The notes beneath the pieces are model-generated. The model was not told where the DNA came from and ran no database searches. It worked only from the letters and a program-made list of their open reading frames with translations. A DNA stretch of 64,000 nucleotides from Dehalococcoidia bacterium (GTDB lineage: Bacteria > Chloroflexota > Dehalococcoidia > Bin125). Each line of letters opens with the position of its first letter. Position 1 is the stretch's first letter. The stretch spans positions 1,469,827 to 1,533,826 of the forward strand of contig OZ244557.1 in the NCBI GenBank assembly GCA_965217625.1, written 5' to 3'. The position numbers and the translations under genes are program-made. This document shows positions 7,424 through 30,226 of this stretch, one piece after another.

Positions 7424-7534
7424 CGTATCCTCGGCAGGGGCATCCTCAACGGGGATGTCGTGCGGGCGGCGCCCCTCCCGTTGCGGAGAGGGGGCGCCGC
7501 CCGCGTCAGGAAGCGATCAGATCGCCGACTCGCG

Positions 7535-9559: not shown

Positions 9560-9627
9560 GACTGAATCCTTTCGCGGGCGTATGCAGTCGTCGCCCGGGC
9601 GGGCGGCTCATCGTTCAAGGCCAGCGA

Positions 9628-9657
9628 ATCGTAATCCTGGGAACGCTATGGTGTCAA
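9628..9657 (-). promoter_or_regulatory. Candidate sigma70-type promoter for the SBP2 cassette
   Basis: On the gene strand: TTGACA, 18-nt spacer, TACGAT (TAnnnT), about 95 nt upstream of the SBP2 ATG. The same module is conserved upstream of SBP3. Confidence 0.35.
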
Positions 9658-9716
9658 CAAGGCCCGCCGATCAGGGAAGCGGCACGCGAATGGACGCGCG
9701 ACCGCCTCGCCCGGCC

Positions 9717-11543: not shown

Positions 11544-11727
11544 TGGGGGGGCCCTCAGGGTCGCCAGGAGGGGCCGGCCGTGGGCCCGAGCTGCGTCCGG
11601 AGAACCGGCTGGGCCAGCTCGCAGCGCCGGTGGATCTCGTCGACCTCGGGTTGCCGGATCATCGAGTTGCCTTTCAGCGCGCCGGGAGTGGGCGGTGCGC
11701 GTCAGGGCAGGAGCATACAAGCGGGGC

Positions 11728-12657
11728 TCAGCGGATATTCCGCAGGCGCGGATCGAAGGCGTCCCGCATGCCGTCGCCGACGAAGTTGAACGACATCACG
11801 AGCAGGATGATGGCGATCGCAGGCGCGACGAGCGGCCAAGTGCCCCGCGTCAGCATGGTCTGGTAGCCCTGCGACACCATCCCGCCCCAGGCGGGCGTGG
11901 GCGGCTGCACCCCGGCGCCGATGAAGCTGAGCCCGGCCTCGATGAGGATGATGCCCGCCGCCGAGAGCGAGGCCAGCACCATGACCGGCGCGACGACGTT
12001 GGGCAGCATGTGCCGCCCCATGATGCGTGCCGGGGGCGCGCCGATCGCCCGCGCGGCATCGACATAGACCTCCTGTTTGATCGAGAGCACGATGCCGCGC
12101 GTGAGCCTCGCGTAGCCCGGTGACCAGACCACGCCAACGATGATCATCGTGTTCGTCAAGCTGGGCCCCGTGGCGCCGACAACGGCGAGGATGAGGATCA
12201 ACCCCGGCATCGCCATGACCGCGTCGACGAAGCGCATGATCACCAACTCGTCCAGCTTGCCGCCCACATACCCGGCCAGGAGTCCCAGCGGCACCCCGGA
12301 CCCCACCGCGATGCCGATCGCGACGATCACGATCTGCCAGGCGATCCGCGTGCCGAAGATCGTGCGGCTCAAGACGTCGCGGCCGAGCCGGTCGGTGCCG
12401 GCGATGTGATCCCAACTGGGGCTGTTGAAGACCGCCTCGCGCGTCTGTTCCGTCTGCAGCGGATCCGCCGGGGCGATCAGCGGGGCGAAGGCCGCCACGA
12501 TTCCGAAGCCGATCAACAGCACGCCCCCCGCGACCGCCGGCCGGTTGCGGAGATAGACGCGCAAGATCGCCCGAAGCTCCCGGACCCAAGCCCGCTCCCG
12601 CAGGCCGGACGTGGAGAACAGCGGCAGCGCTGTCGGGGGCGCCGTGCCGTCGCTCAT
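11728..12657 (-). CDS. ABC transporter permease, DppC/OppC-like
   Basis: Permease with GTDRLGRDVLSRTIFGTRIA and an EAA region. ATGA overlap with the DppB3 stop. Confidence 0.85.
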   Translation of the reverse strand: MSDGTAPPTALPLFSTSGLRERAWVRELRAILRVYLRNRPAVAGGVLLIGFGIVAAFAPLIAPADPLQTEQTREAVFNSPSWDHIAGTDRLGRDVLSRTIFGTRIAWQIVIVAIGIAVGSGVPLGLLAGYVGGKLDELVIMRFVDAVMAMPGLILILAVVGATGPSLTNTMIIVGVVWSPGYARLTRGIVLSIKQEVYVDAARAIGAPPARIMGRHMLPNVVAPVMVLASLSAAGIILIEAGLSFIGAGVQPPTPAWGGMVSQGYQTMLTRGTWPLVAPAIAIILLVMSFNFVGDGMRDAFDPRLRNIR

Positions 12658-13613
12658 AACGCCTCCCGGCCGGCGCGGATGCGCGGATCAAGCAGCGGAT
12701 ACGAGAGATCGACGATCAGATTCACGGCCACCACGCAGACGGCGAAGAACATCACCACGTTCTGGATGATCGCGAAGTCTTGATTGACCACCACGCTCTC
12801 CACGAACCAGCGGCCCATGCCCGGGATGGCGAAGACGTTCTCCGTGATCACCGCGCCGCTGAAGATCAGCCCGACCTGGAAGCCGAAGACAGTGATCACC
12901 GGGATCATCGCGTTGCGCAGCCCGTGCCGGATGATCACGGTCCGCCCTTGCAGCCCCTTGGCGCGGGCCGTGCGGATGTAGTCGTCGTTGAGCACGTTGA
13001 TCATCGCCGATCGTGTCTGCCGCATCAGCAGCGTCGTCGCGGCCAGGGAGATCGCGAGGACGGGCATCGCCATGCTCTTGAGGTTCTCGATGGGGTCTTC
13101 GCCGATCGAGACGTACCCGCCGACCGGGAGCAGATCCAACTCGAGCCCGAGCACCAGGATCAGCGCGATGCCGGTGAGGAACTCGGGGATCGAGTTCCCC
13201 ACGATCATGGTCGTGCTGGCCGCGACCTCGCGCTTGGAGCCGGGCTTCAGCGCCGCCAGCACGCCGATCGGAATGGCCACGACGAGGACCAGCAGGAGGC
13301 TCAGGACGCCCAACTCGATCGTCGCGGGCAGCCGCCGGGCGAACTGGTCCGTGATCGACTCCTGATTGATCAGGCTCAAACCCAGATCGCCCTGCAGCAG
13401 GTTGAACAGCCAGCGGAAGTAGCGCTGCATGAGCGGATCGTTGAGGTGCAGGCGATCGCGGATGGCGGCCAGCGACTCCGGGGTCGATTCGATGCCCCCG
13501 ATGCCGAAGGAGGGATCCCCCGGCAGCAGGTTCATCAACAGAAAGGAGACGAGGCTGACGATCCACAGGATCACGAGCGAGGAGAGGACGCGGGTGGCGA
13601 TGTAGCGGGACAT
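12654..13613 (-). CDS. ABC transporter permease, DppB/OppB-like
   Basis: 319 aa, RTARAKGLQGR motif, paralog of the two DppB-like genes above. Confidence 0.9.
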   Translation of the reverse strand: MSRYIATRVLSSLVILWIVSLVSFLLMNLLPGDPSFGIGGIESTPESLAAIRDRLHLNDPLMQRYFRWLFNLLQGDLGLSLINQESITDQFARRLPATIELGVLSLLLVLVVAIPIGVLAALKPGSKREVAASTTMIVGNSIPEFLTGIALILVLGLELDLLPVGGYVSIGEDPIENLKSMAMPVLAISLAATTLLMRQTRSAMINVLNDDYIRTARAKGLQGRTVIIRHGLRNAMIPVITVFGFQVGLIFSGAVITENVFAIPGMGRWFVESVVVNQDFAIIQNVVMFFAVCVVAVNLIVDLSYPLLDPRIRAGREAL

Positions 13614-13752
13614 CCGTCTTCGCTCGAATCACGCGGGCGCCGAACTGGCGGGCCCGCGACGCCCGATCCCAGGCCGCCGTTCGGCCGCAGCCGAGGACAA
13701 CCGCCGTGACCCCCGGCGGCGCACGCGCCGCCGGGGGTCCGGTTTCCCGGTC

Positions 13753-15999
13753 CTAGGTATTGATCCAGAGGCCCTTGTAGCCGTCGCCGTCGACATCGCC
13801 ATCGACAGGTCGCAGCCGGAACGCCCCGATGTTGCCCTGGGCGGCGAGGCCGGCCGGATACTGAACCCAGTTATACGTCCAGGAGTGGCCCTCGACATCG
13901 GCGCTGCCGTCGCCGTAGCTGGCGAAGAGCCGGTCGTACGGCGCCAGGCGATCCTCCTGCGCGGCGAAGCTCGCCGCCACGTTGAGAAGGTCCTCGGTCT
14001 CCGCGAGCCCCTGCAGCACCTCGTCGTTGGGGTAGTCCGCCAGGCTGGCGCGTCCCGTGCCGGGACCCTCCGCCGGCGAGCCGTACATCCAGCCCTTGAG
14101 GAGAAGTTCCATGGTGGGGCGCATCGTGACGTCCGGGTCGAAGGGCGACTCCCAACTGAGGCAAGCCGTGATGAAGTCGCCGGCCTGGAAGAAGCGGTCG
14201 AGCACGACCGACTCCGAGGCGTCGAAGTACTCGAGGTCCCAGCCGCGTTCCAGCAACTGATTGAAGACCGGCTGAGCCGAGCGGCGGTGGAAGTCCGTGC
14301 CGAAACCCAGGAAGACGCCACTGACCGGGTTGCCGTCGCCGAAGCCGGCGGCGTCCCGCAGCTGCTGGGCCGCTTGGAAGTCGGGCGGGTCGTAGTAGTT
14401 GGCCCCGGGCTGAATCGCCCAGCTCTCGGTGCTGGTGTTGCAGACCGACGCCTTGCCGCGTCCGTCGAAGGCCACGGCGTTGACCGCTTCCCGATCAACG
14501 CTGAGGTTGAGGGCCTTGCGCAGGCGGGGGTCGCGGAACATGTTGAATCCCTCAGCCGCCGGGTTCAGGTTGAACCACTCGCCCATCCAGGTTTGCCAAA
14601 TGCCCAGGCCCACCTGGAAGCCGTCGGCCTCCAGATCCGCCTGGAGGTCCGTCGTCATGCCGCCGGGGGGCTCGGCGTAACTGACCTCCCCATCCAAGAA
14701 CGCCGCCCACCTCCCTTGGGCGTCCGGACGGATGAGGATATCGAGTTCGTCCGCGTAGACGCGCTCATTGTCCCAGTAGCCGTCCCATTTCTCGCCCAGC
14801 CAGCGCTCACCATCCTGGTACTCGACGACCCGAGCGGGACCCGCGCCCACGGGATCGGTGATCGCCGTCTCGAAATGCGCCGGCGAGATCAGCATCCCGG
14901 CGCCCGGGTTGCCGTAGAAGCCCACGATGGTCGGCCCGAAGGGCTGCTCTTTCACCATGCGCCATGAGAGCTCATCGACGGCCTCGAACTGCGAGTTCGC
15001 GATCGCCGTCTGGGCGCGGCTGTTGCCCGCGGCGTCGGGGTCGGACTGCACGTACTCCATGTTGAGTTGCATGGCATTCGCGTCGACCGGCGCACCATCC
15101 TGGAACCGCGCGCGGCCCGCCGCGAAGTTGAAGATGTACGTCGTTTCGTTCGGAATCTCCCACGAATCGGCGAGCTCCGGCTGCACGCGGCCGTTGTCGT
15201 CGTAGCCCAAGACGGAGTCGTAGATGTACTTCAGGAAGCCGCCGTGGTCCGCGCCCGTCAGGGAGATGAAGGGGTTCCAGCCGCCGTCGATGCCGAAATC
15301 TCGCGTGCGGACGATCGTTCCGCCGTACACCGGCGCGCCGGCCGCGGCCGGCTCGTCCTCCTCGTCGGCCATGGTGGCGGCGGCGGCGGCCTCGCGGGCC
15401 GCGTCGGCAGCCTCTTCCGCCGCCGCGACGGCGGCGGCGGCGGTCTCGGCGGCCGCCGCGGACGCCTCTCCGGCGGCCGCCGCAGCGGCAGCCGCGGCAT
15501 CGGCCGCGGCCTGGGCGGCGGCAGCGGCAGCGGCGGTGTCCTCGGCGCCGGCTTCCCGCGCGGCGGCGGCGGCGGCTTCCGCTGCATCCGCAGCCGCCTG
15601 CGCGACGGCAGCGGCGCCCGCGTCGCCCGCGGCCCGGGCGGCCTCGGCCGCATCGGCGGCGGCATCGGCGGCGGCCTGGGCCGCAGCGGCGGCCTGTTCG
15701 GCGTCATCCGACTCCGCCGCTTCGGCCGCCAGGGCGGAGGCCGCCTCGGCGGCTTCGGCGGCGCGGCCCGCGGCATCGGCGGCGGCGCTCGCGGCCTCCG
15801 CCGCGGCAGCGGCGTCGCCCGCCGCCGCGTCGATCGCCGACGTATCGACGGCGGCCGGCGCGGCGTCATCGTCGTCGTCGCCGCAGCCGACGAGCGCGAG
15901 CCCGGCGGCCCCAACGCCGGCCTTGGCGCTGGCTCCCAACATCGTGCGGCGCGAGATCTTTCGCTGTCGCAGGGTGGTCCAATAGTTCGGTGTGCTCAT
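13753..15999 (-). CDS. ABC transporter substrate-binding lipoprotein with an extended (~200 aa) Ala/Glu/Asp-rich linker (SBP3)
   Basis: MSTPNYWTTLRQRKISRRTMLGASAKAGVGAAGLALVGCG plus a long A/E/D low-complexity region, then an SBP_bac_5-like domain. AAAGGA SD before the ATG at 15999. Confidence 0.8.
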   Translation of the reverse strand: MSTPNYWTTLRQRKISRRTMLGASAKAGVGAAGLALVGCGDDDDDAAPAAVDTSAIDAAAGDAAAAAEAASAAADAAGRAAEAAEAASALAAEAAESDDAEQAAAAAQAAADAAADAAEAARAAGDAGAAAVAQAAADAAEAAAAAAREAGAEDTAAAAAAAQAAADAAAAAAAAAGEASAAAAETAAAAVAAAEEAADAAREAAAAATMADEEDEPAAAGAPVYGGTIVRTRDFGIDGGWNPFISLTGADHGGFLKYIYDSVLGYDDNGRVQPELADSWEIPNETTYIFNFAAGRARFQDGAPVDANAMQLNMEYVQSDPDAAGNSRAQTAIANSQFEAVDELSWRMVKEQPFGPTIVGFYGNPGAGMLISPAHFETAITDPVGAGPARVVEYQDGERWLGEKWDGYWDNERVYADELDILIRPDAQGRWAAFLDGEVSYAEPPGGMTTDLQADLEADGFQVGLGIWQTWMGEWFNLNPAAEGFNMFRDPRLRKALNLSVDREAVNAVAFDGRGKASVCNTSTESWAIQPGANYYDPPDFQAAQQLRDAAGFGDGNPVSGVFLGFGTDFHRRSAQPVFNQLLERGWDLEYFDASESVVLDRFFQAGDFITACLSWESPFDPDVTMRPTMELLLKGWMYGSPAEGPGTGRASLADYPNDEVLQGLAETEDLLNVAASFAAQEDRLAPYDRLFASYGDGSADVEGHSWTYNWVQYPAGLAAQGNIGAFRLRPVDGDVDGDGYKGLWINT

Positions 16000-16066
16000 C
16001 ACGTGTCCTTTCGCAAACACATAGGGCCGTCGTCCCCACGGACGGCTCGACCATCAAGGCGCGGGG

Positions 16067-16268: not shown

Positions 16269-17828
16269 TCAGGGTCGCCAGGAGGGGCCGGCCGTGGGGC
16301 CGAGTTGCGTCTTGAGGACGGGCTGGGCGAGCTCGGCGAACTCGCAGAGCAGCGAGCGGGTGTCGCGGGGGTCGATGAGGTCGAGCCCGCTCGCCTCGGC
16401 CGTCTTGAAGGGCGACGAGTACTTGCGGAAGTCGTTCTCCAGCTCGAGCCGCTTGGCCTCGGGGTCGGGGGCCGACTCGATCACCCGGCGGAAGGCGGCC
16501 GAGGTGCCGCCCTCGATGTGCATCGAGCCCCAGTGCCCCGACGGCCAGGCGTAGCGCCGGAAGAGATGCGGGCCGGGGCGGTACTGCAAGCTGCCCGCCA
16601 GCCCGTACGACTGCCGGCAGATGAACGAGACCCAGGGCATGCGGCTGTGGATGATCTGGTACATGAAACGTGCGCCCGCGCGCTCGATGCCCTGCTTCTC
16701 GGACTCGGGGCCGACGAGGAAGCCGGGGTCGTCCATGAGCACGACCATGGGCAAGTGGAAGGTGTCGCAGAGCTGGACGAGGCGCGTGCACTTCTCGGCC
16801 GCCGCGACGTCCATCGAGCCGCCGCGCCGGTTGGGGTTGTTCATCATCACGCCCACTGGGTAGCCGTCGGCGCGGGCCAGGCCGATGATCCGGGAGGGGC
16901 CGTAGGCGGGGGCGATCTCGAAGAACGAGCCCTCGTCGAAGACGCCCTCGATGATGGGGCGCGGGTTGTAGGGCTTGCGGATGTCGCGCGGGATCAGCGA
17001 CAGCAGGCGCTCGTCGCGGCGGTTTGGGTCGTCGCCGGTTTCGACGCGGGGCGCCATCTCGTAGACGTTGTCGGGCAGGTAGCTGAGGAAGCGTTTGGCC
17101 TGCTCGATCGCGGCCGGCTCGTCGGGGGCGACGTTGTCGACCACGCCGCTGACGCGGGTGTGCACGCGCCAGCCGCCCAGGTCCTCCTTGTCGATGTCGA
17201 GGCCCAGGGCCGCCTTGACCACCGGCGGCCCGCCGGGGAACACCTGCCCCAGGCCCTTCGCCACGACGCTGAAATGGCTCAGCGGCGGGATGGGGGCCGC
17301 CCCGCCGGCGGCGGGGCCCAGCACGACCGTGACGACCGGCGCCACGTTGACGACCTTGCACATCCACTCGAACTGGGCGCCGTCGGGGATGTAGGTGCGG
17401 CCCAGCTCCGTGAACTCGTTCACGCTGCCCCCGGCGGCGTCCATGAGGTGCACCGTGGGCATGAGCATGGCCGACGCGTCGGGCTGGCCGTGGCCGATAT
17501 CGACCGCGCCGTCGCTGGTCCGGCCGGATGCGCCGCGGATGGTGAAGTCGGAGCCGCTGACGTAGACAGGTCGCCCGTTGACCTTGGCGACGCCGCGGAC
17601 GCGGGGGGCCGGGGTGAAGCCGGCGAGGGCGCCGTCGTCGTCGTAGGTGGCGTGACCCTGCAGCTTGCCCATCTCGCGCAAGGTGCCGGGGTCGACCAGC
17701 AGCGCCAGGCGCTCGCGGACGGTGAGCTTGCCGCGGGCGCGCTGCCGGGCGATGCCCACGGGCCCGCCCATGCCCTCGGCCAGCGTGTGGCGGCGCTGCA
17801 ACTCGTCGATCTCCGGCTGCCAGGTCAT
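16269..17828 (-). CDS. Acyl-CoA carboxylase carboxyltransferase (beta) subunit, PccB/AccD-like (CT2)
   Basis: Paralog of CT1. MTWQPEIDELQRRHTLAEGMGGPVGIARQRARGKLTVRERLALL... and PGFLVGPESEKQGIERAGARF. ATG at 17828. Confidence 0.85.
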   Translation of the reverse strand: MTWQPEIDELQRRHTLAEGMGGPVGIARQRARGKLTVRERLALLVDPGTLREMGKLQGHATYDDDGALAGFTPAPRVRGVAKVNGRPVYVSGSDFTIRGASGRTSDGAVDIGHGQPDASAMLMPTVHLMDAAGGSVNEFTELGRTYIPDGAQFEWMCKVVNVAPVVTVVLGPAAGGAAPIPPLSHFSVVAKGLGQVFPGGPPVVKAALGLDIDKEDLGGWRVHTRVSGVVDNVAPDEPAAIEQAKRFLSYLPDNVYEMAPRVETGDDPNRRDERLLSLIPRDIRKPYNPRPIIEGVFDEGSFFEIAPAYGPSRIIGLARADGYPVGVMMNNPNRRGGSMDVAAAEKCTRLVQLCDTFHLPMVVLMDDPGFLVGPESEKQGIERAGARFMYQIIHSRMPWVSFICRQSYGLAGSLQYRPGPHLFRRYAWPSGHWGSMHIEGGTSAAFRRVIESAPDPEAKRLELENDFRKYSSPFKTAEASGLDLIDPRDTRSLLCEFAELAQPVLKTQLGPTAGPSWRP

Positions 17829-19908: not shown

Positions 19909-22887
19909 GTGGGTAGACGGGCCGTTGTGTTCGTCTTGGTTTTGCTGCTGGGCGGCCTGGCGGCGGCGATCATCCTCGCGTCCGGGGACACGCCAGGGGA
20001 ACCAGCGGAGGCTCCCGGGCCCTCGGCGGCCGCCGCGGATGCGGAGGCGTCGCCCGAGGCCGAGCCCGCCGCCGCGGAGGCGGAGCCGCCGCCCGAGGCT
20101 GAGCCCGCCGACGCCGAACCGGAGCCGCCGCCCGAGGCCGAGCCGACCGCCGCAGAGCCGGAGCCGCCGCCCGAGCCCACCGCCGCCGAGGCCGAGCCGC
20201 CACCCGAGCCCGAGCCCGCCGCCGAGGCCGAGCCGACCGCCGCGGAGCCGGAGATACCGCCCGAGTCCGAGCCGGCCGCCGCGGAGGCCGAGGCACCGCC
20301 CGAGCCCGAGCCGGCCGCCGCAGAGTCGGAGACGCCGCCGGAGCCCGAGCCGGCCGCCGCGGAACCGGAGGCGCCGCCCGCGCCCGAGCCGGCCGCCGCG
20401 GAGCCGGAGACGCCGCCCGCGCCCGAGCCGGCCGCCGCGGAACCGGAACTGCCGCCGCGATGCGACAGCGGGACGGCGGTTCCCAGCCCCGAGGACAACC
20501 CCGGACTCGTCGCCGACTGCGCCATCCTGCTCGAAGCGGAAGCGCAGCTCGCCGGCCGCGCCACGCTCAACTGGGACGCCGGCACGCCAATCAGCGAGTG
20601 GGACGGTGTCACGGTGGGCGGGACGCCGGAGCGCGTGCAGCGGCTGCGCTTGGCTTCGCGTGAGCTCACCGGCAGCCTGCCGCCAACACTCGGCGGTTTA
20701 TCGGGTCTGCTGGTCCTGGAACTCCGCGGCAACCAGTTAAGCGGCCCGATACCGGCGGAACTGGGAACACTGGCTGAACTCCAAGAACTGAGCCTGAGCC
20801 GCAATCAGTTCAACGGTGCGATTCCGGCGGAGGTTGGCTCCCTGCGCTCCCTGGAGGCCCTGCGCCTGGAAGACAACCAGCTCAGCGGTGCGATTCCGGC
20901 GGAGTTGGGATCCCTTGCGAACCTTCGGCGACTGCTTCTCGAAAACAACCAATTGAGCGGCCCGATCCCGAGCGAGTTGGGGCGTCTGGAAGGCCTGCGG
21001 CTACTGCACCTGTACAACAACCAGTTGAGCGGCCCCATCCCGAGCGAACTGGGGCGCCTGCGAGGCCTGCAGGTACTGCACCTGCACAACAACCAGTTGA
21101 GCGGGCCGATCCCGAGCGAATTGGGGTGGGTGCGCAGCCTGCTGTCCCTGCGACTGCAGGGCAACCAACTGAGCGGAGCAATCCCGCCGATGCTTGGGGT
21201 GCTGCGGCGCCTTCAGCGCTTGGATCTGCGCGATAACCAGTTGAGCGGCGACGTCCCCCAGTGGCTGCAACGCCTGCCAGCCCTCGTCGAGGTGTATCTG
21301 GCCGGCAACGCCGGTCTGACGGGCTGCGTCGTGACGCTGCCGCTACGGGTGACGCGTAGCGATCTCCGCGATCTCGGCCTGCCAACGTGCGAGTCGGCCC
21401 CACCCACGACGACGGCAGCAGCATCGTCGCCCTCTACCTCCCGGCCGGCGTTGCCGCCCGGTCCCTCGCCGTCACTCCCGCCGGGCCCCCCGGGAACGCC
21501 GCCGATCACGCTTGCTGTCTGGATATCCGACGAGGAGTCGGCGATCATCCAGGAAGTGGTCGCCGACGTGTTCGCGTACTTCACGCCGCGGCTGGGGCCG
21601 CCGCCCGATGACTACCGGTTCGTTGTCAGATCAATCTCGTTCCCCTGCTTGACGAGCTTATACAACGGCGGCGTGAACGAGATCTACGTGCCCTGCCGGC
21701 AACTGGAAGCGCTACTCCGATTCGACCTGCCGCGCAGCTATGCAGAACAAATACTGCATCGGAACGTCTACCGTAACCCTTGCGACTACCCCGACCCGGC
21801 GTGGCTGGTGCTCGGCGCTCCGTACTACGTGGCACGGCGGTATGCCGACGCACGTGGGCTACTCGCCTACGAGGAGTCCCGGAAACCCATAGTCGCCCTG
21901 GCGCGCGCGACGCGACTCGCACTCGATGATCCCGATCTGCACAAACCGGGTACGTGTGGGAACTACCCACCGCACTACGAGTTCTACATCGAGATGGTGA
22001 GAATGCTGGGAGTGCTCGCCGTCGAGCGGTTGGTCGAGCGCAGCGGGGACGAGGCGCTCGGCGAGTACTTCACGCTCAGCAAGACGACGGCGTGGCGGGA
22101 CGCCTTCGCGGCCGCCTTCGGCCTGTCCGTCGAGGACTTCTACCGGGAGTTCGCGGAATACCGGCGCTCGGTAACGCCGGCGGGGCTGGCGGAGGCGGAC
22201 GCCACGCCCGAGTTGCACGTGGTCATGAACGTGGCGGATCCGAGCGTGGAGGGCGCGCAGGAGGTGTGGGCGGAGTGGGAGGCCGTGCGGCGCTTCTACC
22301 TGGACCGCTTCGGCCTGGAGGTCGACGCGGCCATCGCCTACGCGGACCTCACGCCCACATTGTACCGCGACCTGCTCGGGTGGTGGGACGTGACGTCACA
22401 GTGCGCCATCGTGCTGCGCCCCGGCGTCGCGATGTATCTGAAGAAGGACTGCGGGGGGCGCGACGTGAATCTCGCGCACGAGTACTTCCACCTGCTACAG
22501 CGCGAACTGGGTGATGGCGGTGGGCACCATTGGATGATCGAGGGCTCCGCCATCCACATGCAGGAACAGTTCGTGCTCGACCAGTGGGGCTTCTCGGCCG
22601 AGGAGCGGAGGCCGAACAATGTGCGCCTCGCCGCCTCATACATACAATCGGTCAGCCGTGGGGTACCCGACGCCAGCTTTGCCGAAACCGCTCTAGAGTA
22701 CGGTCCGCACTACGTCGGATTCCTGGCCGTGGAGTGGCTGGTGGAGCGCGCGGGAGAGGAAGCGATCCTTGAGTACTTCCAAGGGCGATCGTTCTCCAAT
22801 CTGTTCGGCTTGACCGAGGAGGAGTTCTACGCGGAATTCGGCCCCTATCTGCGCGCGCTCCTGGAGGAGCACGCCTCGGGTCGGTGA
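19909..22887 (+). CDS. Membrane-anchored multidomain protein: PEAE-rich linker, about 11 leucine-rich repeats, Pro-rich spacer, two tandem ~220-aa domains with an HExxH motif in the second
   Basis: N-terminal TM anchor (GRRAVVFVLVLLLGGLAAAIIL). (A/E/P)-rich repeats. 24-residue LRRs (LSGPIPSELGRLxxLxxLxLxNNQ). Internally duplicated C-terminal domain (LAVERLVERSGDEALGEYF vs LAVEWLVERAGEEAILEYF). HEYFH present only in copy 2. GGGGAG SD before the GTG start. Confidence 0.7.
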   Translation: MGRRAVVFVLVLLLGGLAAAIILASGDTPGEPAEAPGPSAAAADAEASPEAEPAAAEAEPPPEAEPADAEPEPPPEAEPTAAEPEPPPEPTAAEAEPPPEPEPAAEAEPTAAEPEIPPESEPAAAEAEAPPEPEPAAAESETPPEPEPAAAEPEAPPAPEPAAAEPETPPAPEPAAAEPELPPRCDSGTAVPSPEDNPGLVADCAILLEAEAQLAGRATLNWDAGTPISEWDGVTVGGTPERVQRLRLASRELTGSLPPTLGGLSGLLVLELRGNQLSGPIPAELGTLAELQELSLSRNQFNGAIPAEVGSLRSLEALRLEDNQLSGAIPAELGSLANLRRLLLENNQLSGPIPSELGRLEGLRLLHLYNNQLSGPIPSELGRLRGLQVLHLHNNQLSGPIPSELGWVRSLLSLRLQGNQLSGAIPPMLGVLRRLQRLDLRDNQLSGDVPQWLQRLPALVEVYLAGNAGLTGCVVTLPLRVTRSDLRDLGLPTCESAPPTTTAAASSPSTSRPALPPGPSPSLPPGPPGTPPITLAVWISDEESAIIQEVVADVFAYFTPRLGPPPDDYRFVVRSISFPCLTSLYNGGVNEIYVPCRQLEALLRFDLPRSYAEQILHRNVYRNPCDYPDPAWLVLGAPYYVARRYADARGLLAYEESRKPIVALARATRLALDDPDLHKPGTCGNYPPHYEFYIEMVRMLGVLAVERLVERSGDEALGEYFTLSKTTAWRDAFAAAFGLSVEDFYREFAEYRRSVTPAGLAEADATPELHVVMNVADPSVEGAQEVWAEWEAVRRFYLDRFGLEVDAAIAYADLTPTLYRDLLGWWDVTSQCAIVLRPGVAMYLKKDCGGRDVNLAHEYFHLLQRELGDGGGHHWMIEGSAIHMQEQFVLDQWGFSAEERRPNNVRLAASYIQSVSRGVPDASFAETALEYGPHYVGFLAVEWLVERAGEEAILEYFQGRSFSNLFGLTEEEFYAEFGPYLRALLEEHASGR

Positions 22888-22978: not shown

Positions 22979-23395
22979 ATGCGCAATCAATCCATCATCA
23001 TGCGGCTGCTATCGGTCTACCTGATGGGGTTGGCCGCCGTCGTCGCGGTGTACTTCATCCTCTCGCCGGTGATCCACGGCGACGCGACGGAGTTCCCCGT
23101 CTGGGAAGTGCTCAACTACTTCATGGCCGTCGCGGTCGTCATCGCCGTGGGGGCGAGCGCGCTGCACAAGCTCGACATGGAGAGCGACGTCCGATCGACG
23201 GACGCCGTGCGGTACTTCCGCATGAGCGGGGCGTTCTACGGCGCGGCGCTGCTGGCGCTGTGGTTCTTCTGGCGCTGGTTCACGCAGTTGAACGGTGGGG
23301 ACGGGTCCGATGTCTCCTGGGCGATCATTGACCCGCTCTTCGCGATCGTGACCGCGGCCGTCGGCCGGCACGTGTGGCAGGGCGCCGAGGGCTAG
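22979..23395 (+). CDS. Small hypothetical membrane protein (4 predicted TM helices)
   Basis: 138-aa ORF, hydrophobic segments, coding-like GC3. No recognisable family. Confidence 0.5.
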   Translation: MRNQSIIMRLLSVYLMGLAAVVAVYFILSPVIHGDATEFPVWEVLNYFMAVAVVIAVGASALHKLDMESDVRSTDAVRYFRMSGAFYGAALLALWFFWRWFTQLNGGDGSDVSWAIIDPLFAIVTAAVGRHVWQGAEG

Positions 23396-23431: not shown

Positions 23432-24814
23432 CTACTTCAGGCGCGTGAGGATGCGGCCCTGGTGGTCGGCGTGCGGCGGCGGATACGTGCGCATCTGCGC
23501 GGTCCAGCGCAGGACGCGGCCGACGTGGTCGCGGGTCTCCGTGGGCAGCATCACGTCGTCGATGACGCCCTCGGCAGCGGCGGCGAAGGGGCCGCGGCCA
23601 TCGTCGGCGGTCGCGGCATGGGTCGTATAGGCGGGGACGGGGCCGGTCGCGACGTCGGCCTGCGCCCACGCTCCGACGTAGTGCCGCCCCAGCTCCTCGC
23701 CGCCCAGGAGCCAGTCGCCGAAGACGTAGCCGCGCGAGACGATCAGCGACAGCAGAGGCGCGTCCGCCTCGCGCAAGTGGTTGCCGGCCGTGGCGATATC
23801 GCGCAGCGTCTCGGGGTCGGCGAGGGCGGCCGGGTCGTAGGCCGCGCCGTGCTGAATCAGCAGGATGGGGATGCGGAACCGGCGCCGCAGCCGCGCGATG
23901 TGCAGCAGCGGCGTGACGTGCGCGCGCGTCAGGCCCAGCCCCGGCCCCGCCGCCGCGTAGGCGGTCAGGATCCCGTCGATGACGCCGAGCCCGGTCGCGA
24001 ACGTGCCGTCGGAGGCGGCGTGGATGGGGAAGTGGCTGCCCTCGTCGAGGAGGCCGGCGAGCAGGTCCGCGACGCTCAGGGTGGCGGGATCGACGTCGTC
24101 GGCGAAGCGACCTCTCGGCGGGGCGGCGTCGCGGCGCAGATCATCCTCGCCGTCGTGGGGCAGGAGGGCGAGGCAGCGGCGCGCGGCCGCGATCGCGGCC
24201 GCATCGTCGGCGACGGCGATGTCGGCGATGGCGCGGGTCGCGTCGGAGGCGGCACCGCCGGCGATCGTGAGATCCGCGGCGGCCAGCAGGCCGGTGTCGG
24301 CCCCCTCAAGACCGCCCAGGACGACCGCGATCAGCGGTGCCTGGCGATCATCGAGGCGCAACTCCGGGACCACGGACGCGCGGTCGGACGCGCCGCGGCG
24401 GAGCAGGCCTTCGGCCGCGTCGGGGAACTGCGCGGGCAGGGCGGCGTCGGCGAGGTAGGCGATGGCGACGCCGCCGGCGAGGCTCTGCTGGACGATGCGC
24501 ACGCGCTTGTTCGTGCCCACTTGGCCGTCGCTGCGGGCCATGATCACGGGGTCGTCGGCGATGACGCCGACGAGGCGGCCGCCGACATCGGCGAAGCCCG
24601 CGACCACGCCGTCGCCGGGGGTGGCGTCCTCGATCGCCGGGAGCTGGCTGCGGGTCAGCGCGCCGATCTCGAACAGGCTGCCCGGGTCGATCAGCTGCTC
24701 GACGCGGCGGCGCGGCGTGAGCGCGCCCGGGGCGGGGGTGCGCGCCGCCTCGTAGGCGGCGAGGTCGCGCTTCTCGGCGTGCGCGCGGGCGATGCGGTCG
24801 GCGGTACCTGCCAT
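23432..24814 (-). CDS. Divergent carboxyltransferase-domain protein (acyl-CoA carboxylase beta-like, possibly non-catalytic) (CT4)
   Basis: 460 aa with CT-like N-terminal (RRRVEQLIDPGSLFEIGAL) and C-terminal halves, but degenerate catalytic regions. Directly downstream of CT3 on the same strand. Confidence 0.6.
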   Translation of the reverse strand: MAGTADRIARAHAEKRDLAAYEAARTPAPGALTPRRRVEQLIDPGSLFEIGALTRSQLPAIEDATPGDGVVAGFADVGGRLVGVIADDPVIMARSDGQVGTNKRVRIVQQSLAGGVAIAYLADAALPAQFPDAAEGLLRRGASDRASVVPELRLDDRQAPLIAVVLGGLEGADTGLLAAADLTIAGGAASDATRAIADIAVADDAAAIAAARRCLALLPHDGEDDLRRDAAPPRGRFADDVDPATLSVADLLAGLLDEGSHFPIHAASDGTFATGLGVIDGILTAYAAAGPGLGLTRAHVTPLLHIARLRRRFRIPILLIQHGAAYDPAALADPETLRDIATAGNHLREADAPLLSLIVSRGYVFGDWLLGGEELGRHYVGAWAQADVATGPVPAYTTHAATADDGRGPFAAAAEGVIDDVMLPTETRDHVGRVLRWTAQMRTYPPPHADHQGRILTRLK

Positions 24815-24834
24815 GGCGGGGGTCCGTTCTGCTG

Positions 24835-26355
24835 CTAGCGATAGGGCCGCATGCGGCGGCGGCAGATCTCGAGCACGCGGGCCAGCACGGGCCGGGTGTC
24901 GGCGGGGTCGATGACGTCGTCGAGGTAGCCGAGCCGGGCGCCGATCCAGGGCTCGCCCCGCTCGCGGAACGTTTCGGCGCGCTCCTCCAGGTAGGCCTGC
25001 GGATCGGGCGCGGCCTCCATCTCGCGCCGGAACGCGACGCGCACGCCGGGCTCAGGCCCCATGAACATGATCTGCGAGGTCGGCCAGGCGATGGTGTGCC
25101 ACTCGTAGTCGGAGGCGCTCATGCCGGGATAGGCGTAGCCGTAGCCCTTGCGCAGCGAGATCGCGATCTTCGGCACGGGCACGCGGATGCGGCGAATCGC
25201 CATGTCGTAGATCACCGTGAGCAGCCGGTGGTGCTCCTGCTCGACGTTGGGGATCACGCCGGGCACGTCGACGAAGCTGAGCAGGGGCAGGCGGAAAGCG
25301 TCGCAGGCGCGCAGCATGCGGTCGATCTTGTTGATCGCGGGCACGTCGAGCGAGCCGGCCTTGCGGGCAGGCTGATTGGCGATGATCGCGACGGCGTGTC
25401 CGTCGAGCCGGGCCAGGCCGGCGACCAGGTTCGAGGCGTAGTCGGGCGTCCACTCCATGAAGCTGTCGCGGTCGACGACGAGGCGGATGATCTTGCGCAC
25501 GTCGTAGGCGCGGTTGAGGCGGTCGGGGATGATGTCGCGGAGGATGGGCTCGCGGCGATCGACGGGGTCCCCGCAGCGCACGACGGGCGGCGGCTCCCAG
25601 GCGTTGCCGGGCACATAAGAGAAGGTGCGCCGCAGCAGCGCGATGGCGGCGGCATCGTCGGGGACGACGGCGTCGATCTGGCCCGTCACGCGCCCCTGGA
25701 TCTCGGCGCCGCCGATGTCGAAGGGGGAGACGAACTCGCCGCTGGCCTCCTGCACGACCGGCGGGCTGGCGATGGAGAGGTTGGAGTTCTGCGTCATGAT
25801 GCAGAAGTCGGCGTCGGCGGCGTCCCAGGGGGCGTAGTAGTTGCCCATCACGGCGGCGAAGTGGGCCCAGCGGTTGGGGAAGGCGAGGCGCTCACCGAGC
25901 TCACCGCCGGGCACGCCGGCGAAGCGCGAGGAGAGGACGTCGGTGATGCGGCCGCCGCCGCCCTGGATCAGCGCAAACAGCGGCAGGCCCGCTTGCTCGC
26001 AGACCCGGTGGATGCGGGTCTTCTTGCGCATGTTGCCGCCGCCCAGGGAGCCGCCCTTCACCGTCGCGTCCGAGGCGTAGTAGCCGACGGGGCGGCCGTC
26101 GATCTCGCCGAAGCCGGTCAGCAGGCCGTTGCCCAGCGTGCGCGCCTCCTCCCCCGGGACGCCGGACGTGAGGAAGGAGCCCAGCGGCAACTCGCTGCCG
26201 GGGTCGAGCAGCAGGTCGATCCGTTCCCGCGCGGTGAGCAGCCCGCGCGCGTGCTGTCGCGCGACGCGCTGCGGCCCGCCGAGGCCGCGGGCGCTCTCGC
26301 GCAGCGCGCGCAGATACGCGACGGCGTCGGCGGGGGCGTCGGTGGGTGCAGTCAT
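24835..26355 (-). CDS. Acyl-CoA carboxylase carboxyltransferase (beta) subunit (CT3)
   Basis: GGPQRVARQHARGLLTARERIDLLLDPGS, KGGSLGGGNMRKKTRI, VPGVIPNVEQEHHRL. Carboxyl_trans family. ATG at 26355. Confidence 0.85.
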   Translation of the reverse strand: MTAPTDAPADAVAYLRALRESARGLGGPQRVARQHARGLLTARERIDLLLDPGSELPLGSFLTSGVPGEEARTLGNGLLTGFGEIDGRPVGYYASDATVKGGSLGGGNMRKKTRIHRVCEQAGLPLFALIQGGGGRITDVLSSRFAGVPGGELGERLAFPNRWAHFAAVMGNYYAPWDAADADFCIMTQNSNLSIASPPVVQEASGEFVSPFDIGGAEIQGRVTGQIDAVVPDDAAAIALLRRTFSYVPGNAWEPPPVVRCGDPVDRREPILRDIIPDRLNRAYDVRKIIRLVVDRDSFMEWTPDYASNLVAGLARLDGHAVAIIANQPARKAGSLDVPAINKIDRMLRACDAFRLPLLSFVDVPGVIPNVEQEHHRLLTVIYDMAIRRIRVPVPKIAISLRKGYGYAYPGMSASDYEWHTIAWPTSQIMFMGPEPGVRVAFRREMEAAPDPQAYLEERAETFRERGEPWIGARLGYLDDVIDPADTRPVLARVLEICRRRMRPYR

Positions 26356-26435
26356 CGGACCTCCCGGCTGGCGAAGGGTCGCCGTGGCGCAGGATAGCCG
26401 CAACCGGCGTCGTGGGGGGGCGCAACCTCAACTGG

Positions 26436-26666
26436 CTATGGGTCGAAGCCAATCTCGCTGAGGAAGTCGGCGAGGCTCCATGCCGCGAGGCCGAGACGCT
26501 GACAGGCTGTCGTCATTGCGATCTTGATCGGCAGCCGGTCGATACGATCTTCGGTCACGACGCGGACCAACCGACCGGACTGCTGGAACTCCATGCCCTG
26601 CGCCGATATATCGAAGACGGCGATCCGATCGAGATCGCGGCGGAGAATGTCCCCGCCGGCGCTCAT
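26436..26666 (-). CDS. Small hypothetical protein (76 aa), translationally coupled to the upstream HTH/ImmA gene
   Basis: ATGA start/stop overlap at 26663-26666. High GC3 consistent with coding. No family recognised. Confidence 0.45.
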   Translation of the reverse strand: MSAGGDILRRDLDRIAVFDISAQGMEFQQSGRLVRVVTEDRIDRLPIKIAMTTACQRLGLAAWSLADFLSEIGFDP

Positions 26667-27835
26667 GCCGAAGTGCCGATCTCGTCGGCAAGTTCCACGA
26701 TCTCGGCACCGTCGAGACGCAAGTATCGGCGCGCGTCGAGCTCATTGAGCCGGTGATCAGACACCGCGCGCAGGACCGTCATCGCCGCACGGGGTCCGAC
26801 CTCGTTCAGCCTGCGCTTCGGCGCTCGCCGAGCACCCCCGCGGCCGAAACCCTTGTCAAAGTCGGCAGTCGGAGCGGCTTCCTCGACATCTGCATACAGC
26901 GTGTCGTCCGCCAGTCCAGATCGGATCAACGCGACTGCCGTCGCTCGCAGGCTGACGTTGAATTCCGAGGCAAGCTCCTGGACGAGTGCGAAGTCGGGCT
27001 CAACAGCCACTACAGCACTCCGGACCGCCGCACGTAGCGCGTCCCGCGGGAGCACGGCTGCGCTCGCGACGGCTTCGCACCAGCGCTCAACGTCGTCAGC
27101 ACCGGGCCCGTGGCCCACTTCCTCAAGGCACGAGGTCCCTGTTCCTGCGCCGAGATGCGCGAGTTCATGCAGCAGCGTGAATATCCGCGCCTGGGGGTTT
27201 TCGCGCGTATTCACGGCGACCAAGGGAGCGAAATCATCGGGGAGCGAGAACCCTCGCAGGCCGTCGCTGCCAAGCTGCAATTGCATAACGACGACGCCGC
27301 GGCGCTCCAACGCGTCGCGCCACGCATTGAACGCTTCCCGGGCCGACGACCAGTCCCGTTGCTCCTGCAGCGTCAGCCCGAGCCATGTCCTCAGCCGAGC
27401 GCCAGCGACGTCGGCCGGGGACGTGATGGGCACGCGGGGCAACTCCACGGATTCCCCGTGCTCGTCCCGCTCAAGCAGGCTCAGAAGGCGCTGCATGCGT
27501 CGGGCCCGGCGCACAGGCAGCAACTCCGCTGCGGTCAACCGTCTCGTGGTCCTCCCGACGGCGCTACGCAGCCGGGGTGGCACTCCGCCGGTCTTCGGAG
27601 GCTCCGGGAGGAAGAAGATCGACTTTGGGCGGTGTAGTCTCTCCGCGAGTTTGGTGAACTGCCCCTGTGTCGGTCCATCGTCGCCCGTGATCCACGCCTG
27701 GACGGTCGCTGCGTCGAGCTTGAGGCCCGCTGCAAGATCCTCGGCCGAATAGCCGGACTCTTCGATTGCCCATTTGAGAACCTCGGAGGTCACGGGCGGT
27801 CGTGCAGGCGGCATTATCCGGCTCGCTTCACGCAT
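26663..27835 (-). CDS. XRE-family HTH fused to ImmA/IrrE-type (COG2856/DUF955) metallopeptidase-like domain; candidate ScfR/RamB/PrpR-like regulator
   Basis: N-terminus VTSEVLKWAIEESGYSAEDLAAGLKLDAATVQAWITGDDGPTQGQFTKLAERLHRPKSIFFLPEPP is the HTH typical of the COG2856 family. HExxH in RIFTLLHELAHLGAG. Only the C-terminal ~390 aa of the 890-aa track ORF is real. Confidence 0.75.
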   Translation of the reverse strand: MREASRIMPPARPPVTSEVLKWAIEESGYSAEDLAAGLKLDAATVQAWITGDDGPTQGQFTKLAERLHRPKSIFFLPEPPKTGGVPPRLRSAVGRTTRRLTAAELLPVRRARRMQRLLSLLERDEHGESVELPRVPITSPADVAGARLRTWLGLTLQEQRDWSSAREAFNAWRDALERRGVVVMQLQLGSDGLRGFSLPDDFAPLVAVNTRENPQARIFTLLHELAHLGAGTGTSCLEEVGHGPGADDVERWCEAVASAAVLPRDALRAAVRSAVVAVEPDFALVQELASEFNVSLRATAVALIRSGLADDTLYADVEEAAPTADFDKGFGRGGARRAPKRRLNEVGPRAAMTVLRAVSDHRLNELDARRYLRLDGAEIVELADEIGTSA

Positions 27836-27879
27836 CCAGTACGTTGGCGGAATGATACGGGACGGGGGAGGCGCAGGCC

Positions 27880-29373
27880 CTACCCCGCGACGGACGGGCG
27901 CGTGCGACCGACGCCCGTCGCCGTCTCGAAGGCGTGCGCGAGTTGCAGGACCTCGAAGTCGGCCTGGTGGCGGCCGACGATCTGGACGCCGACGGGGAGG
28001 CCGTCGGCGGTGAAGCCGGCGGGGACGGAGATCGCGGGCAGGCCGGTGAGCGTGATGGCGTAGCAGACGGCCATCCAGTCGATGTAGGTGTGCATGACGA
28101 CGCCGTCGATCTCGCGCACCCAGGGCTGTTCGATGGGGAAGGGCGGGACGGCGGCGGCCGGCAGCACCAGGAAGTCGTAGCGCTGCATGAACCCGCGCAC
28201 GCGCTGATACAGTTCGCTGCGTTTCGCCACGGCCTCGGAGACGTCCATGCCGGAGAGCGCGAGCCCCTTCTCCGTGTTCCAGCCGACGGTGTCCTTCATG
28301 CGGTCGCGATGCAGCCGCAGGTCGTCGATGCGGGCGCGGGAGGTCGCCCAGGCGCGCAGCGTCTGGAAGATGGCGTCGGCGTCGTGGAGGTCGGGCTCGC
28401 CGTCCTCGACGACGCAGCCGAGCGCTTCGAACACCGGACGCTGGGCGTCGAGGGTCTGCGTGACGGCGGGCTCGACGGGGTAGCGCCCCAGGTTCCGGCT
28501 CCAGGCGACGCGCGTGCCCTCGAAGCTGGCGTCGAGGGGGGCGGCGAAGCGCTCGCCGGGCTCGGCGATGGCGATGGGTGCGCGGGCGTCGGGCCCGGCG
28601 ATGGCGGAAAGCAGCAGCGCGGCGTCGGCGACGGAGCGACCCATGGGGCCCAGGACAGCCAGCGGCGACCAGGCGTCGAGCGTGGGCCAGGACGGGACGC
28701 GGCCCGGCGAGGGGCGAAAGCCCACGACGTTGCAGAAGCTGGCGGGGTTGCGCAGCGAGCCGCCGAGGTCGGAGCCGTCGGCGATGGGGACCATGCCGGT
28801 CGCCAGCGCGACGGCCGCGCCGCCGCTGCTGCCCCCGCAACTGCGGGTGAGGTCGTAGGGGTTGCGCGTCGCGCCGAAGACGGGGTTGAAGGTGTGCGAG
28901 CCCGCCCCGAACTCGGGCACGTTGCTCTTGCCCAGGATGATCGCGCCGGCGGCGCGCAGGCGCTCGACGATGAGGTCGTCCTGGGCGGGCACGTGGTCGG
29001 CGTAGATGGGCGAGCCGAAGGTCGTGCGGATGCCCGCCGTCGAGACGAGGTCCTTGATCACGATGGGCAGCCCGTGCAACGGGCCCGGCGGACGGCCCGC
29101 GGCGAGGGCGGCGTCGTCGGCGGCGGCGTCGGCCAGGGCGCGCTCGGGGAGGAGCGTGCAGATCGCGTTGACGCGCGGGTTGACCCGCGCGATCTGGTCG
29201 AGGTGCGCCTCGACGACCTCGCGAGCGGAGAGTTCCCGGCGGCGGATCAGGCCGGCGAGGTCGCGGGCGGAGCGGAAGTGGAGTGGGTCGGTGATGGGGG
29301 TTCTCCCGGGGGTGCCGGCGCCTGGAGACGGCCACAGGACCGAGGTTAGCGCGCCGGACCCTCGACGGCCCAC
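27880..29373 (-). CDS. Amidase (amidase-signature family, GatA-like)
   Basis: GGSSGGAAVALATGMVPIADGSDLGGSLRNPASFCNVVGFRPS signature. KDL/Ser-cisSer-Lys context (PIVIKDLVSTAGIRTTFGS). Start uncertain (GTG 29373 suggested; the track ORF extends to 29736, overlapping the next gene). Confidence 0.8.
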   Translation of the reverse strand: MGRRGSGALTSVLWPSPGAGTPGRTPITDPLHFRSARDLAGLIRRRELSAREVVEAHLDQIARVNPRVNAICTLLPERALADAAADDAALAAGRPPGPLHGLPIVIKDLVSTAGIRTTFGSPIYADHVPAQDDLIVERLRAAGAIILGKSNVPEFGAGSHTFNPVFGATRNPYDLTRSCGGSSGGAAVALATGMVPIADGSDLGGSLRNPASFCNVVGFRPSPGRVPSWPTLDAWSPLAVLGPMGRSVADAALLLSAIAGPDARAPIAIAEPGERFAAPLDASFEGTRVAWSRNLGRYPVEPAVTQTLDAQRPVFEALGCVVEDGEPDLHDADAIFQTLRAWATSRARIDDLRLHRDRMKDTVGWNTEKGLALSGMDVSEAVAKRSELYQRVRGFMQRYDFLVLPAAAVPPFPIEQPWVREIDGVVMHTYIDWMAVCYAITLTGLPAISVPAGFTADGLPVGVQIVGRHQADFEVLQLAHAFETATGVGRTRPSVAG

Positions 29374-29380
29374 GCAGCGG

Positions 29381-30226
29381 TCACGACTCGCACCCCAGCC
29401 CATCCCCGTCGACGTCGAAGCGGTGCGGGTCGGCGCCGACGACGCGGAACCGGCGCAGCGAGATGTCGCCGCAGTCGAGGTCGGGCGGGGGCGGCGGGAT
29501 GCACACGCCGGGGTACGACGGATCGCAGTGCGAGGCGTCGGGGATGGTCGCGGAGCGGCGGCCGTCCGACTGCACCCAGAGGGCCTGCCCGCGCTCGACC
29601 ATATGGAGCGTGCGGAGCCCAGGCGGCAGGCCAGCGGCGAAGGACATGAAGCGGCCGTCGGCGTAGGCGATGATCCGATCGGCGCCCAGCGTCGCCGCGA
29701 CCTCGGAGGCCGTCGCGCCGGGCCCGGTCCAGCCAATCGTGCTCCACCCGTCCGCGACGGCGACCGTGCGCGCGCCGGTGAACACGGGTCGCGTCCAGGA
29801 CGAGGGCCCAGACAGTTGCAGCCAGAGCGCGTCCCCCGCCGCGACCTCGGGCAGCGTGTTGAGGGACGAGGCTGACGTCACGCGCCAGGTATCGAACTCG
29901 CCGGCCTCGACGTTCCAGCGGAACACCGCAAGCAGACCGGGGATCGCTCCCAGCACCGCCGCCGGCGCGCCCGCCTCGGTCGCGACCACGAAGCTCCAGG
30001 GGGCCTGCAGCGGGATGGTTTGGGGGGTGACGGCGGCATCGGTCGCGGCGGACGGGGTCGTCGGCGGGGCGGGTTGCTCGGTCGCCTGGATGTCGCGCGA
30101 CTCGGCCCCGGCGACCAGCATCCCAGCGACGAGCAACACGACGGCAAGCAGAGCAGCCGCCAAGCCCGCGGGGCGCTCCTCATGGCCGGTTCCGCCGACG
30201 CATCGGCGCAGCGTAGCAGCGGGCAT
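29381..30226 (-). CDS. Secreted/membrane-anchored protein with a C-terminal Excalibur (extracellular Ca-binding) domain
   Basis: C-terminal CDPSYPGVCIPPPPPDLDCGDISLRRFRVVGADPHRFDVDGDGLGCES contains the DxDxDGxxCE Excalibur motif. Hydrophobic anchor LAAALLAVVLLVAGMLVAG. Start uncertain. Confidence 0.6.
   Translation of the reverse strand: MPAATLRRCVGGTGHEERPAGLAAALLAVVLLVAGMLVAGAESRDIQATEQPAPPTTPSAATDAAVTPQTIPLQAPWSFVVATEAGAPAAVLGAIPGLLAVFRWNVEAGEFDTWRVTSASSLNTLPEVAAGDALWLQLSGPSSWTRPVFTGARTVAVADGWSTIGWTGPGATASEVAATLGADRIIAYADGRFMSFAAGLPPGLRTLHMVERGQALWVQSDGRRSATIPDASHCDPSYPGVCIPPPPPDLDCGDISLRRFRVVGADPHRFDVDGDGLGCES

Follow-up and report, generated by a model that had tools for sequence, protein, structure and literature searches.

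Gene content of the locus

We analyzed a stretch of 64,000 nucleotides from a Dehalococcoidia bacterium (contig OZ244557.1, positions 1,469,827 to 1,533,826; hereafter the window), centering on a locus in which two adjacent carboxyltransferase (CT) genes, CT3 and CT4, are preceded by a gene for a helix-turn-helix (HTH) protein with a zinc-peptidase domain (hereafter the regulator). The GC content of the window is ~70%; gene calls in it were chosen by the GC content of third codon positions (GC3) and the resulting open reading frames (ORFs) were scanned against Pfam. All genes of the locus are on the minus strand, in the order amidase, regulator, a 76-codon ORF, CT3 and CT4.

The amidase-signature enzyme (27880–29403; Pfam Amidase, E-value 1.3e-110; NCBIfam PRK07486, 560 bits against a cut-off of 465) is the ancestral upstream neighbor of CT3 (see below). 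It is followed by the gene for the regulator (26663–27814), an antitoxin-like protein of 383 residues that combines an XRE-type HTH with an M78 (ImmA/IrrE) zinc-peptidase, and by the 76-codon ORF (26436–26666), which is the remnant of a gene for a DUF4411 (PIN-like) toxin. Both are contained in an insertion of ~1.45 kb (26428–27876), delimited by alignment breakpoints and GC3. CT3 (24835–26355; 506 residues; Pfam Carboxyl_trans, 2e-91), a member of what we call the ‘GNYYAPW’ subfamily, is a candidate β subunit, and CT4 (23432–24814; 460 residues; Carboxyl_trans, 6.5e-18), with a divergent CT fold, is a candidate β′ subunit. CT4 lies directly after CT3 on the same strand, just as an earlier reading of the window, made without database searches (hereafter the sequence-only reading), had described; the gap between them is 20 nucleotides.

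The HTH-peptidase protein, its DUF4411 partner and their insertion

The regulator is typified by an N-terminal HTH (HTH_3, residues 20–69, 2e-07) followed by the peptidase domain (Peptidase_M78, residues 177–302, 8.9e-17), which is the domain order recognized previously. The family alignment places its true start at the ATG at 27814, as in all homologues, and not at 27835; the earlier length of ~390 residues is corrected to 383 by this shift, and the accompanying observation that DUF2083 is absent holds good (no Pfam match at E ≤ 0.01). In an alignment of 26 family members, H223, E224 and H227 of the HExxH motif are invariant together with E250; the only two cysteines of the regulator, C236 and C253, are both within the M78 domain. 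The homologues (n = 107) are nearly all ~375–400 residues long, with a few shorter or partial sequences, and display the same two domains, none of them with DUF2083. The best match in the PDB is chain A of 9vzy (393 residues; 2.5e-24 for the regulator sequence by itself, 1.4e-53 for the family profile), to which the regulator family aligns over its full length, the C-terminal region included; the next matches of the 26-member profile are CapP (1.6e-4) and IrrE (1e-3). The lengths of the homologues and the full-length alignment to 9vzy show that the regulator, contrary to the earlier suggestion, is not a shortened variant.

PDB entry 9vzy also holds a chain named ‘DUF4411 family protein’, with the two types of protein in complex. 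Further, the regulator matches 14 RmrA models of PADLOC (the antitoxin of RosmerTA; best 3.6e-16), and ImmA-type antitoxins have been described as components of RosmerTA systems (Ernits 2023, PMC10440598; also a Millman 2022 preprint). The regulator thus shares with RosmerTA both the matches to RmrA models and the architecture of an HTH with an ImmA-type zinc-peptidase; it differs in that its DUF4411 partner matches no PADLOC model and in that the toxin at this locus is truncated. The arrangement is that of HTH-DUF955 proteins paired with DUF4411, for which a toxin-antitoxin role has been predicted (Matelska et al. 2017, PMC5499597). Here the fusion of HTH and M78 (DUF955), the intact HExxH and the presence in orthologues of a translationally coupled DUF4411 gene are all shared; the difference lies in the DUF4411 gene being cut to its C-terminal 76 codons, leaving an orphan antitoxin-like gene and a toxin fragment.

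The 76-codon ORF was overlooked in the sequence-only reading. Its start (ATGA) overlaps the regulator stop by 4 nucleotides, and although it has no Pfam match of its own, tblastn aligns it with residues 88–165 of an intact DUF4411 protein of 170 residues from another locus, L002 (51% identity, 6e-19). ORFs of identical length in two related loci, L001 and L006, score ~1e-15 against a purpose-built DUF4411 HMM. As the match is limited to residues 88–165, the window retains no more of the PIN-like toxin than its C-terminal half, and a full-length coupled DUF4411 protein (PIN-like, with four acidic residues) is replaced by this 76-residue ORF. At L002 a regulator homologue with 68% identity is situated between a methyltransferase gene and gyrB and is followed, with a 4-nucleotide overlap, by the 170-residue DUF4411.

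To count partners, we used 80 genome loci that were fetched with the regulator family alignment. A DUF4411 homologue, typically 150–180 residues in length, is present in 71 of these; in 66 of the 80 it lies on the same strand with its start between −60 and +150 nucleotides from the stop of the regulator homologue (median gap, −1 nucleotide). A CT gene within 6 kb of the regulator homologue is found at only two of the 80 loci, one being the window’s own lineage and the other having a canonical CT gene 3.3 kb away.

In several genomes the DUF4411 gene is split by frameshifts beside an intact HTH-M78 gene (L003/L004, 7152–7665; L016, 7133–7645; L024, 7133–7649). Such splits in genomes that are independent of each other, along with the truncated gene of the window, point to recurrent decay of the toxin while the antitoxin-like gene is kept. 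The DNA encoding the C-terminus of the regulator (26663–26740; GAEIVELADEIG) also resembles an internal segment of the DUF4411 gene (LAEVMRLAGDVV; L002, 7075–7420); this short similarity between GAEIVELADEIG and LAEVMRLAGDVV may have mediated a deletion of ~260 nucleotides that removed the 5′ half of the toxin gene while preserving the ATGA overlap.

That the two genes are embedded in foreign DNA is seen both in their composition and in the corresponding empty site. GC3 is lower in them (regulator, 0.74; remnant, 0.78) than in the amidase, CT3 and CT4 (0.94–0.95). In the sister lineage L005, which has a syntenic locus and a CT4 that is 86% identical, only 71 bp separate the amidase from CT3 and no gene intervenes. 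The blastn breakpoints (27877/27876 and 26428/26427) define the insert of ~1.45 kb: L005 8170–8388 aligns to 28095–27877 of the window and L005 8381–8614 to 26427–26201. The insertion is flanked by an imperfect direct repeat of ~14 nucleotides (27879–27864 and 26427–26414; GGCCTGCGCCTCCCCC and GGTTGCGCCCCCCC), of which the empty site of L005 has a single copy, and which resembles either a duplicated target or a junction formed at microhomology. The same insert is present in L001 and L006 (93–94% identity). A terminator-like site was not predicted between the insert and CT3, and transcription may read through from the insert into CT3 and CT4; a sigma-70 promoter scan found nothing, which is a weak test in DNA of 70% GC.

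CT3 and CT4 as a conserved pair

An exhaustive phmmer search with CT4 recovered a distinct subfamily of 38 representatives (E < 1e-30) that are 430–475 residues long and 31–44% identical; canonical β subunits were reached only at ~1e-20 and mostly over the N-terminal part, and the Pfam Carboxyl_trans model matches CT4 well only over residues 30–124. A word-indexed search with the CT4 profile found one distant member only, and metagenome contigs scanned with the CT3-like alignment yielded canonical PccB-like CTs and nothing else; against the CT3 HMM these reached 380–450 bits, as compared with 816–924 bits for true CT3-like proteins.

The CT4-like loci that we examined, reported as eight, comprise L005, L086–L090, L171, L172 and one JGI contig (no DNA). 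At 8/8 of these a CT3-like gene is directly upstream of the CT4-like gene on the same strand, often with a 4-nucleotide overlap, and the pair thus recurs in several sequences that are only distantly related. The upstream partners are ~500–517 residues in length (324 as called on the JGI contig); with a CT3-like HMM they reach 540–920 bits, above the 380–450 of canonical CTs. A neighbor-joining tree was built for the pairs of the window, L005 and L086–L090. In it, CT3-like and CT4-like proteins form two monophyletic clades that branch congruently, with the CT4-like proteins evolving faster than the CT3-like ones. The dN/dS values of 0.07 for CT3 and 0.17 for CT4 indicate purifying selection on both.

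The best PDB match of CT3 is 1vrg (7e-94), and the CT4 family profile matches PccB from end to end (~1e-56). An AF2 model of CT4 (pLDDT 87, pTM 0.86) superimposes in Foldseek on acyl-CoA carboxylase β subunits with TM-scores of 0.75–0.80. Using PDB alignments to place motifs in PccB numbering, we found that the two families have undergone different changes, which are conserved within each of them. In the CT3-like proteins the ‘GPCAGGAVYSPA’ loop with G182-G183 is replaced by a ‘GNYYAPW’-type loop that is shorter by two residues; CT3 itself has ‘GNY--YAPW’ in place of ‘GPCAGGAVY’, a change seen in all 8 further CT3-like partners aligned. These proteins also have Tyr, Phe or Leu at G419: in the C-domain oxyanion loop (PccB G419-A420) CT3 reads ‘YGYAY’, with G419 changed to Tyr. 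They retain the ‘QGGGxRIT’ and ‘DxPGxxP..(Q/E)E(H/Q)’ motifs. The earlier description of CT3 as canonical thus does not fully hold, given the loss of the G182-G183 loop.

The changes in CT4 are more extensive. Its counterpart of the G182-G183 loop is ‘GGLEGADTG’, in which G182 is kept and G183 is changed to Ala, in a region that is variable across the CT4 family, and its C-domain oxyanion loop reads ‘YVFGDW’. The CT4-like proteins lack the ‘GGAR’ loop and ~24 N-domain residues (‘FxTGPxVV...ELGGA’), and in place of the C-domain motifs have the family-specific ‘QHGAAYDP’ and ‘GHxLGDFxLGG’. Most catalytic motifs are missing from the CT4-like proteins. Together with its own subfamily, its constant CT3-like neighbor and its low dN/dS, this loss supports the proposal of the sequence-only reading that CT4 is a divergent and possibly non-catalytic partner of CT3.

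In the PccB and 12S transcarboxylase structures, each active site is formed between the two subunits of a dimer, one contributing its N-domain and the other its C-domain. Since active sites are built across dimer partners in this way, the conserved and complementary loss of motifs fits an obligate heteromer, in which CT4 would be a structural or specificity subunit. With the homohexamers of PccB and 12S transcarboxylase (PDB 1xny, 1on3, 1vrg) the pair shares the fold and domain layout, and CT3 further retains the ‘DVPG..P..QEH’ and ‘RKxYG.A’ regions; unlike them, the CT3-like proteins have lost the Gly-Gly oxyanion loop, have Tyr, Phe or Leu for G419 and are always accompanied by a degenerate second subunit.

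The gene neighborhoods of related pairs provide a functional context. In L089 genes encoding biotin carboxyl carrier protein (BCCP) and a biotin carboxylase (BC) adjoin the CT3-like/CT4-like pair; in L090 a BC-BCCP α subunit and an acyl-CoA ligase (5729–7294) do so; and in L086 the pair adjoins a BCCP-like gene and has genes for a family III CoA-transferase and an Amidohydro_2 protein nearby (flanking genes at 9341–11650). In L171 (2990–4614) and the JGI contig (3300047160) the CT pair is flanked by pairs of DUF35 (OB_ChsH2_C) and SCP-x-type thiolase-like genes. Because of these neighboring genes, we assign the CT3/CT4 family to biotin-dependent acyl-CoA metabolism; the ligases, CoA-transferases and DUF35/thiolase pairs hint at a catabolic pathway that cleaves C–C bonds of acyl-CoAs. 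In the window itself, Pfam scans of the ORFs and tblastn searches with genes from the related loci detected no BC, BCCP, CoA-transferase or acyl-CoA ligase, which agrees with the previously noted absence of α-subunit genes.

The closest precedent for a mixed CT core is the mycobacterial AccD4(2)AccD5(4) core (PMC13012033). The AccD4/AccD5 and CT3/CT4 pairs have in common two paralogous β subunits of the PF01039 family and a single proposed CT core served by BC-BCCP, and AccD4/AccD5 chains are matched by both CT3 and CT4. The CT3 and CT4 genes differ from them in being adjacent and often overlapping, the CT4-like proteins in having lost most catalytic motifs and the CT3-like proteins in lacking G182-G183; AccD4 and AccD5 reportedly both retain their catalytic sites and are not encoded in tandem. 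The ketone carboxylases XccABC and AcvCDE were also considered as a precedent with two CT subunits and were set aside, their CT being PycB-like and not of the PF01039 family. A literature search in a limited library, which is no proof of novelty, returned no description of a degenerate β′ CT subunit.

Interpretation of the locus and other genes of the window

We consider it likely that two unrelated things have come to be adjacent at this locus, namely a decayed module of the toxin-antitoxin type and an ancient, co-inherited CT3/CT4 pair that forms a heteromeric CT core. The regulator and the 76-codon ORF would be the decayed copy of a two-gene module in which the XRE-HTH/M78 zinc-peptidase protein serves as antitoxin and autoregulator and the translationally coupled PIN-like DUF4411 nuclease as the toxin. 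This module would have arrived in a foreign segment of ~1.45 kb that came to separate CT3 from the amidase gene; the toxin gene would then have lost its first ~87 codons, among them those for the PIN core's first acidic strand, and presumably its activity. The HTH-peptidase, itself intact, in all likelihood continues to bind its own promoter; it would not sense acyl-CoA and might affect CT3 and CT4 at most via read-through transcription. For their part, CT3 and CT4 most likely assemble as the β/β′ CT core of an acyl-CoA carboxylase that depends on biotin; the genes for its BC and BCCP subunits would lie elsewhere in the genome. CT3, with most of its C-domain catalytic motifs retained, would be joined by CT4 as a structural or substrate-shaping partner that keeps the fold with most of its catalytic motifs lost. 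In these terms the regulator module belongs to a known class, of which it is an ordinary if decayed example, and CT3/CT4 is probably an uncharacterized heteromeric β/β′ core, plausibly a new variant of a known enzyme type.

Several observations weigh against parts of this interpretation. On the side of the module, no PADLOC model, RmrT included, is matched by three intact DUF4411 partners (L002, L011, L018) or by the remnant in the window. Moreover, regulator and remnant are both under purifying selection, with dN/dS values between the window and L001 of 0.27 and, on few sites, 0.20; neither is decaying freely, and the remnant may retain some role. On the side of the CT pair, the heteromer is proposed from gene adjacency and co-evolution, the gene contexts covered for CT4-like proteins are eight, and biotin dependence in the window organism is assumed, with BC and BCCP genes being absent from the window as well as from the flanks of L001, L005 and L006. 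Finally, the loss of G182-G183 and the change of G419 to Tyr in CT3 leave it ambiguous which composite site, if any, would be active.

The sequence-only reading instead suggested that the regulator is a short-chain acyl-CoA sensor of the ScfR/RamB/PrpR type, perhaps shortened in form, with the CT genes under its control in a propionyl- or methylmalonyl-CoA regulon. PrpR and RamB are defined by the combination of HTH, DUF955 and DUF2083 and by a clade-wide C-X2-C-X4-C motif, which ligates a [4Fe4S] cluster beside the CoA pocket (Tang et al. 2019, PMC6765138). An XRE HTH at the N-terminus, ahead of a DUF955-type domain, is indeed a trait that the regulator has in common with these ScfR/IsaR proteins, yet the central DUF955/IrrE-like domain occurs in thousands of non-ScfR proteins, and the regulator differs from the ScfR/IsaR group in being ~100 residues shorter, in its intact HExxH and in lacking both DUF2083 and, with its two cysteines, the cluster motif. 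No similarity to PrpR chains (PDB 6CYY) was detected at E ≤ 10 with either the single sequence or the 26-member family profile, and the regulator groups with the ImmA-type proteins rather than with ScfR. The regulator is co-oriented with CT3 and 300 nucleotides upstream of it with no predicted terminator between them, but its link to the CT genes is undone by DUF4411 being the conserved partner, by the rarity of CT genes near its orthologues (2/80 loci), by its absence together with the whole insertion from the syntenic CT locus of L005, by its GC3, which marks it as foreign DNA, and by TetR regulators, not XRE-M78 proteins, being the neighbors of CT3-like/CT4-like pairs elsewhere. A VOC gene at 63540, earlier noted as epimerase-like, is only weakly similar to methylmalonyl-CoA epimerase (65.7 bits versus the 115-bit cut-off of TIGR03081) and is 36 kb away. 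Nor were the anticipated shared operators seen: there is no inverted repeat or palindrome upstream of the regulator, and the 8-mers common to its upstream region and those of the CT and amidase genes are GC-rich ones without an operator-like motif, again a weak test at 70% GC. We regard this reading as highly improbable; an HTH-M78 protein beside metabolic genes is no evidence for an acyl-CoA-sensing ScfR, and domain order alone is not diagnostic. A different role for the same protein, namely that it was domesticated after the loss of the toxin and that its promoter now drives or gates CT3 and CT4, would account for its dN/dS of 0.27 despite the truncation of the toxin and for the insertion being common to the window, L001 and L006, and it draws on the co-oriented arrangement with a 78-nucleotide gap to CT3 and no terminator-like site, as well as on a promoter-like region upstream in the insert that is conserved with L002. 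However, the event looks recent and lineage-restricted, the regulator has no ligand-sensing domain, the purifying selection can be explained by anti-addiction or autoregulatory retention, and the read-through into CT3 is a prediction; we judge such domestication unlikely.

Turning from the regulator to the CT pair, it is conceivable that CT4 is catalytic by means of a re-invented site (D96, K103, D181 and ‘GHxLGDFxLGG’), or that CT3/CT4 is a biotin-dependent decarboxylase or transcarboxylase. The CT4 family does have invariant acidic and basic residues of its own, L086 has a BCCP-like gene and no BC gene, and no BC gene is nearby in the window lineage. Set against these are the BC genes that adjoin the pair in L089 and L090, the absence at the loci seen of the membrane β subunit typical of Na+-pumping decarboxylases, and the lack in CT4 of ~24 N-domain residues and of the ‘DVPGF..QEH’ region; we consider this alternative unlikely. 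More tentatively than the heteromeric core as such, we entertain the possibility of an obligately asymmetric β/β′ CT, in which either the complementary losses, of the N-domain Gly-Gly loop from CT3 and of the C-domain motifs from CT4, would leave one type of composite site per heterodimer, or the Tyr/Trp-bearing ‘GNYYAPW’ pocket would give rise to a new chemistry for an unusual acyl-CoA substrate. If true, this would in either case represent an undescribed class of biotin-dependent carboxylase in Chloroflexota and other, mostly unclassified, metagenomic lineages. Similarly, should the heteromer with a degenerate subunit be real, it would be the second mixed CT core after mycobacterial AccD4/AccD5 and would offer an accessible example of a pseudoenzyme partner among biotin enzymes. 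As it stands, automatic annotation reports this conserved two-subunit CT family as two separate ‘acyl-CoA carboxylase beta’ genes.

Beyond this locus, the window has two further CT paralogues on the minus strand, CT1 (3909–5486; Carboxyl_trans, 2.4e-101) and CT2 (16269–17828; 8.4e-84), so that CT1–CT4 are all within 22.4 kb, a slightly tighter cluster than the 25 kb given before. No specific NCBIfam equivalog was found for any of the four, all of which score far under the mmdA cut-off. Both CT1 and CT2 are single genes that keep the Gly-Gly loop and lie beside peptide-type ABC transporter genes (SBP_bac_5 and BPD_transp_1, at 613–16053), among which there is also an FG-GAP/ASPIC protein (9717–11795); their association with peptide-type transporters suggests carboxylase or decarboxylase modules linked to substrate uptake. 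Between CT2 and CT4, the plus strand encodes a 992-residue protein (19909–22887) with N-terminal tandem repeats rich in Pro, Glu and Ala, and ~10 leucine-rich repeats (LRR_8, 1.5e-23); its C-terminal half is long and matches no Pfam family, and the whole protein is missing from the syntenic locus L005. It is followed on the same strand by a gene for a predicted membrane protein of 138 residues without a family match (22979–23395), convergent with and downstream of CT4, which is conserved in both L001 and L005 (138–140 residues).

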